A stretch of DNA of 64,000 nucleotides, taken from NCBI GenBank assembly GCA_043814055.1, contig JBDRKL010000004.1, positions 80,518 to 144,517 on the forward strand, written 5' to 3'. This stretch comes from an archaeon (GTDB lineage: Archaea > Undinarchaeota > Undinarchaeia > Undinarchaeales > JBDRKL01). The position numbers and the translations under genes were made by a program. Shown here piece by piece: positions 31,246 to 45,910 of this stretch. The number at the start of each line of letters is the position of its first letter. The first letter of the stretch is position 1. The notes beneath the pieces are model-generated. The model saw only the letters and a program-made list of their open reading frames with translations. It was not told the origin of the DNA and did not search any database.

Positions 31246-31875
31246 ATGGCAAGGGAAACAGTTGACAAGTGGAAGAGCAAGAAATTCTTTGATGTTGTAG
31301 CCCCGCCGCTATTCAGGAACGCTGTCATAGGGCAGACAATCGCATCAGACATTCGCAAAGTCCCGGGCCGAATAGTAATGGCCAACTACAGCACAATCAT
31401 AGGCGATCCGAACTCAAGGAACAACAAGGTCAAGCTCAAGTTCAAAATCACAGGTGTCAAGGGCGAGAAGGCAGAGACAGAGTTCCTTGGTCACGCGCTT
31501 GTCCAGGACTATCAGCGCAGTTTGGCGAGGCGCAGGACGAGCAAGGTATACAAGAATCAGGTAGTCACCACAAAGGACGGAAAAAGACTTCGCGTGAAAT
31601 CAATTATTGTTACAACTAGGCAGGTTAAGAAGTCAATGAAGAGCGAGCTTGGCAAGAAACTTCTTGAGTTCATGGCTGAGGATGCAAAGCAGTACAATTA
31701 CAATGAATTCATCAATGACGCAGTTTCTGGCAGGATTTCAATGCGAATGAAGAAAGGGCTTTCCAAGTTCTACCCGCTCAGGCACGCAGTGGTTGAAAAG
31801 ACCGAAGTTATTAAGGAAGCTGTGAAGGCTGAGCCGAAGGTTGAAGAGAAGCCTGCAGAAGAGAAGAAGGAATAG
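31246..31875 (+). CDS. rps3ae: 30S ribosomal protein S3Ae (eS1)
   Basis: DKWKSKKFF..APP, RRRTSK, TKDG motifs; follows rps15. Confidence 0.95.
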   Translation: MARETVDKWKSKKFFDVVAPPLFRNAVIGQTIASDIRKVPGRIVMANYSTIIGDPNSRNNKVKLKFKITGVKGEKAETEFLGHALVQDYQRSLARRRTSKVYKNQVVTTKDGKRLRVKSIIVTTRQVKKSMKSELGKKLLEFMAEDAKQYNYNEFINDAVSGRISMRMKKGLSKFYPLRHAVVEKTEVIKEAVKAEPKVEEKPAEEKKE

Positions 31876-31910: not shown

Positions 31911-31975
31911 TGCAGTGAAGAAGTGAACACCCTCTGATACCGCCCAAAGATGATGAGTATGGTAGCTTCTGAGCA
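31911..31975 (+). ncRNA. Archaeal box C/D methylation guide sRNA
   Basis: TGC-A-[C GTGAAGA 31915-21]-12 nt-[D' CTGA 31934-37]-12 nt-[C' ATGATGA 31950-56]-12 nt-[D CTGA 31969-72]-GCA; terminal TGC/GCA stem. Confidence 0.8.
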
Positions 31976-32036
31976 CTCAATGATTTTTTGGTCCAGCTTT
32001 TGCGCGAGTTTTGCGAGCGGAAAAGGTGGGTGCCAG

Positions 32037-32084
32037 CACCCTCTGATACCGCCCAAAGATGATGAGTATGGTAGCTTCTGAGCA
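32037..32084 (+). repeat. Exact 48-bp duplicate of the sRNA 3' part
   Basis: Identical to 31928-31975. Confidence 0.97.
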
Positions 32085-32169
32085 ATCTTTTTCCTTCCAA
32101 TTTATCAAAAACGTCGGACGCACAGCGTCCGAGGCCAACGCGCTTCGCGCGTCTGGAGCTTGACCAAAA

Positions 32170-32564
32170 ACAGTGCTGCTGCTTGATGTTTTTGAAGCAG
32201 CACGTGGCCGCTCTCCGCGGCCAGGCGGAGATAGCAGTAGCTTCTGAGCAATCGTTTTCACAAACTTCTATTGAGGCTTCGCCGATGGCGAATGCCTCTG
32301 CTCTGCCTCCGCGAGCAGGCGGAGCTTCTGAGCAATCTAAACTTTTATTTTTCACAAATTTGACCGAAGGCACCCGAATGGCTTGGTAATGCCACAGCAT
32401 CACCAATTTTATGTGGCATGCTCTGCCTCCGCGAGCAGGCGGAGCTTCTGAGCAATCTAAACTTTTATTTTTCACAAATTTGACCGAAGGCATCCTACTT
32501 GCTCGGTAGTCCCGCAGCATCAAAAATTTCTTGCGGGACAAAGTGCCGCCTGATTTTTCAGGCG
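32170..32564 (+). repeat. Tandem cluster of four hairpin elements separated by copies of the sRNA 3' end AGCTTCTGAGCAATC
   Basis: Terminal hairpins at 32213-30, 32307-24, 32427-44, 32547-64; 74-bp exact repeat 32299-32372 = 32419-32492 (period 120). Confidence 0.9.
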
Positions 32565-32955: not shown

Positions 32956-34317
32956 ATGGACTCCATCCTTAAAGAGGTTCTCAAGCGGGCTACGCCGACC
33001 GAGGCAGAGCACAAGAAATTGGAAAGCTTTGCCCAGCAGGTTGTCAGGAAACTCAAGGCAGCCGGCTACAGGGCAGACGTAGAGGGCTCTATCGCAAAGG
33101 ACACCTGGGTTTCAGGCACGCACGATGTTGATATTTTCATGTTTTTTGAGCCAGGAGTTCCAAGAAGCAAACTGGAAAAGGATGGCATAGCAGCTGGCAA
33201 GAAAATCATAAAAGGGCTCGGCGGCAGCCCAGTGATTGCGTATGCCGAGCACCCTTATGTGAAAGGTGCTATTGGGAATTTCAACCTTGATATAGTCCCC
33301 TGCTATTCAATCAAAAAGACCGAGGAGCTTCAGTCCGCGGTTGACAGGACACCGTTCCACACCGCTTACATAAAGAAAAACCTCACCAAAAAGCAGATGG
33401 GTGAGACGCGCCTGCTCAAGCAATTTATGAAAGGCGTCGGCGTGTACAGCGCCAAGGAAAAAGTGCGCGGCTTTTCAGGTTATCTCTGCGAGCTTTTAAT
33501 CCTTGAGTACAAGGACTTCATGGGCGTTGTGAGAGCTGCCAAGAACTGGAAGTACGGCACGGTCATAGACCTAGAAAAGTTCTACAAGGGCAGGGAGGCA
33601 TTTAACCTGTTCAAGCACTCCCTCGTCGTGATAGACCCAATAGACAAGGACAGGAATGTTGCAGCCGCGGTTGAGAATGACAACTTTGAGCGTTTTTCAT
33701 TTGCGTGCAGCGAGTTCCTCGCGAAGCCGTCTAAAAAATTCTTTTACCCTGAAAATGTTCAAGTTCTTAGCAAAGGCGAGTTGAAAAAGAAACTTGAAAA
33801 GCACGGCGAACTATTCGTGGTCAAGTTTAAGACGCCAAAACTCATAGAGGACATTCTTTATTCTCAATTGAGGCGCAGTTTGGCTTCCTTAGTTAGGGCT
33901 GTGAAGGAAGAAGATTTTGAGGTTATTGACTCGGCGTTCCACTCCGATGAGTATTCATATTTCTTACTTGAGCTAAAAACTGCAAAGCTACCGGGGATTA
34001 AAAAGCTTGACGGCCCTCCAATCCAGATAAGTCAGGAACACCAAAAAAAATTCACGGACAAGTACAAGAAGCAAAAGCCATGGGTGGAGAAAGGCCGCTG
34101 GTATGTTGAAGTTCCTAGGGAATATGTCCAAGCTGTAAAGTTGCTCAAGCAGTTGCTCTCAAATCCGCGGCAGATTGGGATTGGAAAATATATATCAGAC
34201 AGTCTTAAGAAAGATTATAAAATCCTTTCAGGCTCAGAATTGTCTAAGGAATACAAGGAAGAATTTGCAACGTTTTTAACGCAGTACTTGGTCAAGAAGA
34301 ACTCCTGGAATTGGTAA
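32956..34317 (+). CDS. cca: Archaeal class I CCA-adding enzyme
   Basis: VEGSIAKDTW..HDVDIF, YAEHPY, DIVPCY, AVDRTPFH, GFSGYLCELL, DPIDKDRNVAAAV. Confidence 0.97.
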   Translation: MDSILKEVLKRATPTEAEHKKLESFAQQVVRKLKAAGYRADVEGSIAKDTWVSGTHDVDIFMFFEPGVPRSKLEKDGIAAGKKIIKGLGGSPVIAYAEHPYVKGAIGNFNLDIVPCYSIKKTEELQSAVDRTPFHTAYIKKNLTKKQMGETRLLKQFMKGVGVYSAKEKVRGFSGYLCELLILEYKDFMGVVRAAKNWKYGTVIDLEKFYKGREAFNLFKHSLVVIDPIDKDRNVAAAVENDNFERFSFACSEFLAKPSKKFFYPENVQVLSKGELKKKLEKHGELFVVKFKTPKLIEDILYSQLRRSLASLVRAVKEEDFEVIDSAFHSDEYSYFLLELKTAKLPGIKKLDGPPIQISQEHQKKFTDKYKKQKPWVEKGRWYVEVPREYVQAVKLLKQLLSNPRQIGIGKYISDSLKKDYKILSGSELSKEYKEEFATFLTQYLVKKNSWNW

Positions 34318-45669: not shown

Positions 45670-45729
45670 GGTAGCGGTGCAGCATCACCAATTTGATGCA
45701 CCGCACTTTCCCTCCGCAAGTAGGCGGAG
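45670..45729 (+). repeat. Multi-hairpin repeat element (type A) abutting tRNA-Gly CCA
   Basis: GGTA, stem GCGGTGCA/TGCACCGC, loop GCATCACCAATTTGA, 7-nt linker, CTCCGCAAGTAGGCGGAG 45712-29. Confidence 0.85.
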
Positions 45730-45910
45730 TGGTGCGCCGGCCGGGACTTGAACCCGGGTCGCAGCCTGTTTGCAACCCACTTCGCAGATTTACTGCCGCG
45801 AAGCGGCTCCGAATCGCGTAGCGATTCGTTTTTTGGTCGAGCTTTTTGCGCGCGTAAGCGCGGAAAAAGGTCGTGGCAAGGCTGAATCATAGCCGCTAGA
45901 CCACCAGCGC
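45730..45910 (-). tRNA. tRNA-Gly(GCC) with 106-nt intron at 37/38 (45768-45873), CCA encoded
   Basis: Acceptor GCGCTGG/CCGGCGC, anticodon stem CAGCC/GGCTG, BHB helix TTGC/GCAA, T arm CCGGG-TTCAAGT-CCCGG. Confidence 0.92.

Follow-up and report, generated by a model that had tools for sequence, protein, structure and literature searches.

The window, the whole stretch of 64,000 nt analysed here, contains an intact C/D-box-type sRNA (31911-31975, plus strand) between rpS3Ae (31246-31875) and the gene for the CCA-adding enzyme, cca (32956-34317). A degenerate C box and the D', C' and D boxes are visible in this sRNA, Rfam returns weak sub-threshold C/D matches for it (sR14, E 0.027), and its orthologue is single-copy in 12 relatives with 83-89% identity. 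The sRNA was the target of an insertion. Its 3' part (31928-31975) recurs as a second direct repeat at 32037-32084 on the plus strand, with 48 of 48 nt identical; this second repeat is a 5'-truncated sRNA copy that lacks the C box and has kept the original T-rich 3' flank. A segment of 61 nt lies between the repeats (31976-32036, minus strand) and is absent from the sRNA-cca spacer of the relatives. It carries a hairpin module in its short form (31984-32029, minus strand), which reads CCACC-T4-loop-A4-GCTGG-ACCAAAAAA on the minus strand.

The spacer downstream holds further material of this kind. A diverged composite copy (32083-32170, plus strand) comprises a 5' arm, T5/A5, two nested GC hairpins and then AGCTTGACCAAAAA. 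The preliminary description had placed this last string, as a reverse complement, correctly at 32157-32170 and had taken it as the start of an element; it is instead the 3' end of the diverged composite. The architecture of the composite is nearly the same as that of a sequence elsewhere in the same genome (G000, C12:3560-3680) and of composites upstream of tRNA-His and both tRNA-Glu genes. Three more partial copies of the sRNA 3' end, beginning at 32237, 32321 and 32441 (32237-32457, plus strand), bracket other hairpin elements. The last 14-23 nt of the sRNA are found in five copies within 31962-32463 (repeat family D2), each by a different hairpin element, and the sRNA-cca spacer measures 980 nt here, against a length of about 68 nt in G004, G008 and G012, three relatives whose flanking genes are the same. 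Taken together, the five copies and the expanded spacer indicate a putative hot spot at which serial insertions would have piled up. A second copy of the loop of the window insert is absent from the assembly, although the target duplication is perfect, which fits a cut-and-paste event or an unsampled donor better than simple copying. A search of metagenomes for filled or empty strain variants gave no exact match to the sRNA of the G000 lineage; the more distant orthologues found on metagenome contigs are all single-copy.

The second site of interest is a tRNA-Gly(GCC) gene (45730-45910, minus strand), in which ARAGORN detects a 106-nt intron at position 37/38. This intron (45768-45873, minus strand) is a long form of the element and comprises the module, hairpin 2 (45810-45828), hairpin 3, GGUUG (45773-45777) and CAAAC. 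The module (45829-45873, minus strand) has the orientation of the tRNA, and intron and module begin at the same base. In eight relatives (G002, G003, G004, G007, G008, G010, G012 and G013) the gene is intron-less, and their exons align across the junction without a gap, exactly at the intron site of G000. A homologous intron of 126 nt occupies the same tRNA-Gly position in G011. The exons interrupted by the intron join into a normal cloverleaf. Since ARAGORN found no other tRNA-Gly(GCC) gene in the assembly, the intron-bearing gene should be functional.

It had been claimed from inspection of the letters that the sequence between the sRNA duplicates (31984-32027) is homologous to 45829-45871 and that the latter is part of the tRNA-Gly intron. 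Both strings are present, the second one lies within the intron on the minus strand as called by ARAGORN, and the homology holds: the local alignment score is 40, while 2000 dinucleotide-preserving shuffles gave 16.7 ± 3.1 and none reached 40 (z 7.6). Among 42,594 44-mers sampled from the genome as background, only 2 reach the score of the pair. The two copies differ in orientation, the insert being antisense to the sRNA and the intron copy sense to the tRNA.

On the tRNA strand the module consists of C-R-ACC, T4-5, a variable and mostly self-paired loop, A4-5, GCT-Y-G and a single-stranded ACCAAAA tail. The C two bases ahead of ACC is fixed in 96% of the copies, a position that had been left free in the pattern scan. 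The following base covaries with its partner: among 104 copies, CA is matched by CTTG in 61, CG is matched by CTCG in 39, and 4 depart from the rule. The corresponding second stem pair of the window insert is C-G, consistent with this covariation. In an alignment of 60 copies, 93.6% of the stem cells are paired, and sliding the partner by one column lowers pairing to 54-58%; cells in which both bases have changed number 91 in this alignment versus 31 in shuffles, with none of 500 shuffles as high. A C.C mismatch at one stem position is conserved in the main family. Conservation has sharp borders, the first C on one side and the end of the A-run of the tail on the other, and the 10 bases upstream of the module carry no consensus. 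In all copies the helix leads directly into single-stranded ACCA. The two stem arms form inverted repeats, and the long forms end in CRACC...GGTTG in about a quarter of copies; the ACCAAAA tail on one side breaks this symmetry. A distal GGTTG was found downstream in 30 and upstream in 11 of 111 copies. GGTTG as a universal right end was rejected; it is enriched, yet present in only about a quarter of the copies.

Which strand folds was also considered. The antisense strand is more stable in 114 of 119 copies, mostly through the energies of G.G versus C.C mismatches, and this line was left without a verdict because the G-U counts are equal (27 vs 24). As a separate observation, the length of the tail A-run and the base next to it track the length of the stem T-run (129 distinct copies; z 7.5 at the first free position). 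This may reflect subfamily structure or alternative pairing. A triple helix or an alternative pairing of the A-tail was tried and dropped, the signal linking tail and stem length fading past position 5.

For the search across genomes, a covariance model (R1) was built from 60 copies, 53 of them from other genomes and 7 rows from G000, including both window copies. The insert copy scores E 1.2e-10 (match 31983-32032) and the intron copy E 3.1e-12 (match 45828-45876), values to be read with both copies in the training set. They are the two strong copies of the window and both lie on the minus strand; one weak copy on the plus strand corresponds to the composite (32133-32172, E 0.049). In the assembly of G000, a DPANN genome (980 kb, 14 contigs, 82% complete), the genome-wide search that had been suggested as a check detected 15 copies at E<=1e-4 and about 30 at E<0.01, and the other 16 genomes of the phylum contain 0-5 copies each at E<=1e-4. 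At the Rfam gathering threshold the module is without a match; within the window only tRNAs pass, and in three loci of other genomes nothing does. Permissive thresholds add only chance-level matches. In the searchable literature the core string retrieved only unrelated primers, and we found no published description of the element.

Many copies in G000 lie close to genes of stable RNAs. A sense copy starts 0-5 nt past the 3' end of 9 of the 40 ARAGORN tRNAs, of the RNase P RNA gene (RNaseP_arch, 141 bits, C12:3873-4205) and of at least one other C/D sRNA, and each of the 22 tRNA-linked copies runs in the direction of its tRNA. Behind three of the nine module-trailed tRNAs, a partial copy reaching from the T-loop to the 3' end is found still further downstream. 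In the modules that abut the nine tRNA 3' ends and the RNase P RNA, a run of T4-T6 starts 5 nt into the module, which corresponds to the sequence of an oligo-T terminator; module T-runs probably also serve as terminators behind RNA genes.

This arrangement could be read the other way round, with the module as a selected 3'-end cassette of stable-RNA genes and the copies in introns and inserts as secondary strays. The cassette would combine an oligo-T terminator five bases past the gene with an ACCA-ended minihelix that mimics a tRNA acceptor end, and a cut by RNase P or tRNase Z would free the upstream RNA. Hairpin-plus-RCCA model substrates are cleaved by RNase P. The close spacing behind RNA genes and the uniform sense orientation of the tRNA-linked copies agree with such a role, as do a helix that starts with C-G and continues into A-CCA, the sequence required of an RNase P substrate, and the archaeal RNase P RNA present in the genome. 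We nevertheless judge this reading unlikely. The tail is also conserved in copies that are antisense to the local transcript, namely in the window insert, in 11 copies behind tRNAs elsewhere and in Gaiellaceae copies before start codons; RNase P cutting where the intron begins would leave no intact pre-tRNA; and the target duplications and empty sites show that insertions took place.

Such duplications are not confined to the window. Comparing the 80 nt upstream with the 300 nt downstream of the module, a direct repeat with a score of at least 14 was detected in 22 of 114 copies elsewhere with enough flanking sequence, versus none in reversed controls. The duplications vary in length between 14 and 70 nt and the inserts between 45 and 200 nt. 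A distance of 0-7 nt separates the end of the first repeat from the module start in 20 of the 22 cases (15 and 20 nt in the remaining two), and the second repeat begins 0-207 nt past the module tail. Typical targets are the T-loop or the D-loop of a tRNA; the repeat spans from the loop to just past the gene end, and therefore the intact gene is rebuilt. Microhomology at the junctions lacks support as a rule: some repeats start in A-runs or end in AACC, but the bases upstream of the module carry no consensus. The proposal that intron sequence and intergenic elements come from one pool of mobile hairpin modules is supported by these results. The intron segment and the intergenic insert are copies of one dispersed, multi-copy family of homologous sequences with a covarying stem and patchy copy number, both sites of the window are empty in relatives, and long target duplications, perfect over 48 nt at the sRNA, accompany the insertions.

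Inserts framed by duplicated 5' or 3' ends of tRNA genes are the hallmark of archaeal integrative elements (PMC3293823), and the flanking repeats could in principle be att scars of tRNA-targeting integrase elements that have lost their interior, the module being a leftover arm. We consider this highly improbable. The inserts measure only 45-200 nt and are not kb-sized, the repeat length is not fixed, and the targets include the sRNA, ends of protein genes and hairpin loops of other elements; moreover, the identical module sits in introns without repeats. No full-length or autonomous element that bears an integrase and is bounded by the module was detected in 125 loci. One pair of copies (L027) had been a candidate for enclosing an autonomous element and was discarded, its two copies being independent insertions behind two tRNAs. 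A tyrosine recombinase (PF00589) was not found in G000 (82% complete), and the same holds in this assembly for a reverse transcriptase, the Y1/HUH transposase (PF01797), TnpB, DDE_Tnp_1, Cas1 and IS110.

The missing reverse transcriptase in G000 bears on a further explanation, mobility via RNA. Here, a transcribed element, or an excised and circularised intron, would be reverse-transcribed and inserted by target priming in a SINE-like manner. One sharp and one ragged end as well as target duplications of variable length are expected for this route, and indeed the repeat abuts the first base at the sharp end, the distance on the other side varies between 0 and 207 nt, the duplications range from 14 to 70 nt, and the intron copies are strictly sense. 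However, the duplications include flank bases outside the gene bodies, which may lie beyond the transcript, and the sharp end would correspond to an RNA 3' end only with an antisense transcript, opposite to the orientation in introns. We therefore regard an RNA intermediate as improbable, if somewhat less so than att scars, and return to insertion at the DNA level.

The intron copies have a common layout. A tRNA-Met intron of 109 nt (G000 C12:152935-153119, outside the window) has the same three-hairpin organisation as the Gly intron and a GGGUUG end. The Gly and Met introns of G000 are 78% identical over positions 37-138 (about 102 nt, E 6e-16); both begin with the module, followed by two further hairpins and then GGGUUG plus 5-6 nt. 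The idea that the intron combines a module with a decayed exon 1 copy was rejected, the 3' parts of the two introns being homologous to each other. In other genomes the module is present in 19 canonical introns called by ARAGORN, in all of them sense and at or near the intron 5' end. Where the call is usable, the distance from module to splice site is 0-7 nt; two of the 19 calls start the intron inside or after the module. GGTTG lies 4-8 nt ahead of the 3' splice site in at least 8 of the 19. Two antisense intron calls by ARAGORN look spurious. Further copies are found in T-loop introns and are closed by pairing of the CRACC/GGUUG type.

A motif with the canonical bulge-helix-bulge layout can be drawn from these sequences. 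In it, CGACC (or CAACC) pairs with GGUUG, the anticodon-loop UUGC forms a helix with GCAA, and two 3-nt bulges remain at the splice sites. The fold in which this motif is enforced has -76.2 kcal/mol. The free cloverleaf fold, with -82.3 kcal/mol, is about 6 better and favours the module's own stem over GACC/GGUU. The splicing endonuclease EndA is encoded in G000 (PF01974, C6:30540-30794, E 3.7e-32).

The interpretation that we favour, and that we hold to be probable, is that of a small non-coding insertion element with a constant hairpin module, which persists as a bulge-helix-bulge intron where its long form has landed in sense orientation in an anticodon loop. The way of insertion can be outlined from the arrangement of copies and repeats. 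The element would be moved in trans, or by host replication and repair, and would land where stable-RNA genes under heavy transcription expose single-stranded stretches, in the D-, anticodon- and T-loops and at the 3' ends. Filling-in of staggered breaks in the DNA would duplicate the stretch between them, and the duplication would restore the interrupted gene, as with the 48-nt duplication of the sRNA. For a long form in sense orientation within an anticodon loop, the terminal CRACC could pair with GGUUG at the other end of the element; with an additional helix of 4 bp to the anticodon loop, a bulge-helix-bulge motif would arise. The host splicing endonuclease could then excise the element, and it would survive as an intron through its splice motif, as suggested for tRNA-Gly and tRNA-Met. 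Selection for a function at the RNA level could be another source of the all-sense tRNA-linked copies and of the trailers behind RNA genes.

In this way, members of one family are observed in three states: newly inserted with a perfect duplication, trailing behind tRNA genes, and as a predicted spliceable intron where eight relatives have an empty site. These states link mobile DNA insertion to the origin of archaeal tRNA introns and make intron gain testable. A review of 2014 called the mechanism of tRNA intron transposition unknown (PMC4090602), and a preprint of 2026 on tRNA introns of Asgard archaea concludes that 'how they arrive remains open'.

The module is not restricted to the phylum of G000. 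In a collection of species-representative genomes the exact motif (fixed letters only) was found on more than 115 contigs; an arithmetic estimate that assumes uniform base composition puts the chance expectation at about 1. Among the matches listed, the record titles name Woesearchaeota, Nanoarchaeota, Micrarchaeota, Iainarchaeum, Parvarchaeota and Altiarchaeota. Other archaeal titles among those listed are 'Methanosarcinales' MAGs, Thermoproteota, Methanomethylicales, Thaumarchaeota and several genera of Halobacteria, and the bacterial ones are a Gaiellaceae MAG and two other MAGs of Actinomycetota. The G+C content of the contigs from bacteria is 65-71%, and the neighbouring genes, for example Obg, are bacterial as well. 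With R1, 11 and 7 copies were detected in two bacterial genomes, 9 in Halolamina salifodinae and 17 in a Woesearchaeota MAG. The Gaiellaceae copies are mostly antisense and lie just upstream of start codons; in a tandem pair among them, the loop of a different hairpin has received an insertion, accompanied by a long duplication. A motif of 33-45 nt that extends from DPANN to Halobacteria and Actinomycetota points to one of two things, a mobilising activity that has gone unrecognised or a tiny parasite that spreads horizontally. More tentatively, and as a possibility rather than an expectation, we propose a protein-less element of many archaeal phyla and Gaiellaceae-type Actinomycetota, which would be inserted by an undescribed mechanism (host replication or repair at folded single-stranded DNA, or an unrecognised enzyme) with duplications of 14-70 nt and would be a direct source of bulge-helix-bulge tRNA introns.

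Further details were noted in individual lineages. A Gaiellaceae MAG (L116, L101, L120, L148-L154) and a MAG of Actinomycetota (L025, L084, L106, L155-L158) contain multi-copy relatives of the module. These bacterial copies usually lie in antisense orientation 8-12 nt before a start codon, with AAAAGG at the position expected of a ribosome-binding site and a second long hairpin about 50 nt away. In Halobellus (L036), Halanaeroarchaeum (L118) and Halalkalirubrum (L124), a module-led insert of about 200 nt is located behind the same GC-rich, RNA-gene-like sequence and is flanked by an 18-23-nt repeat of the end of that sequence. In other Halobacteria the module begins 2-6 nt past stop codons.

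Several known systems resemble the element in part. One parallel is given by the transposed bulge-helix-bulge tRNA introns of Thermoproteales (Fujishima et al. 2010, reviewed in PMC4090602), where introns of different tRNAs also share sequence and intron-less orthologues also imply gain after speciation. Their transposition is thought to act at the DNA level by a mechanism that is unknown (PMC4090602). A family of transposed tRNA introns is recognised by sequence shared between isoacceptor introns beyond chance, as is seen for the Gly/Met pair. In contrast to the Thermoproteales introns, the intron sequence described here also occurs outside tRNA genes as repeat-flanked insertions, its core motif crosses phyla and even domains, and a defined 45-nt module marks the intron 5' end. 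The archaeal integrative elements of the SSV1 and pNOB8 type (PMC3293823) share with our element the rebuilt tRNA gene and the repeat of a 5' or 3' end, but here the insert has 45-200 nt without an integrase and the targets are not only tRNAs.

Similarities also exist to bacterial repeats. REP, BIME and REPIN sequences, which RAYT, an IS200-like Y1 transposase, mobilises, are likewise short imperfect palindromes with a conserved mismatch, multi-copy, located at gene ends and protein-less; however, the cognate Y1 transposase (RAYT) was not found in G000. To our knowledge, REPs show no long target duplications and do not occur as introns. MITEs such as Correia/NEMIS and elements of the IS1634/IS1549 type resemble our family in being non-autonomous, with inverted-repeat arms and target duplication. 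Duplications of tens to hundreds of bases are reported for IS1549 and IS1634. MITEs are characterised by a fixed short duplication and a related transposase element, whereas the duplications found here are variable (14-70 nt), DDE_Tnp_1, IS110, Y1, TnpB and Cas1 gave no match in G000, the element is asymmetric with the ACCAAAA tail on one side only, and an autonomous parent is missing from the 125 loci. The double-hairpin elements of fungal mitochondria are also tiny hairpins, inserted in introns or at gene ends and in some cases beside duplicated gene ends; judged from their description, they are set apart by sequence, hosts and scale.

Some additional arrangements in G000 deserve mention. 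A CAAAC variant of the module (C12:3823-3872) lies directly 3' of the RNase P RNA gene and is followed by a string of hairpin elements. The genes for tRNA-His (C12:37620-37870), tRNA-Glu(CTC) (C3:23810-24040) and tRNA-Glu(TTC) (C12:18290-18520) are preceded by duplicates of 17-29 nt of their own 5' ends, a few leader bases included, and then by a composite module. A variant with a perfect stem, CAAAC...GTTTG-ATCAAAAA, is found behind two tRNA-Thr genes, with three tandem units at C10:138481-138651 and two at C8:32633-32725; in the latter, each unit repeats the last 11 nt of the tRNA-Thr. Finally, a second and unrelated hairpin family, with an 8-bp stem, a loop starting with GCATCA and a subsequent CTCCGC...GCGGAG hairpin, is present in the window at 45670-45729 and 32362-32564, where it flanks the 3' end of the tRNA-Gly and fills part of the sRNA-cca spacer.
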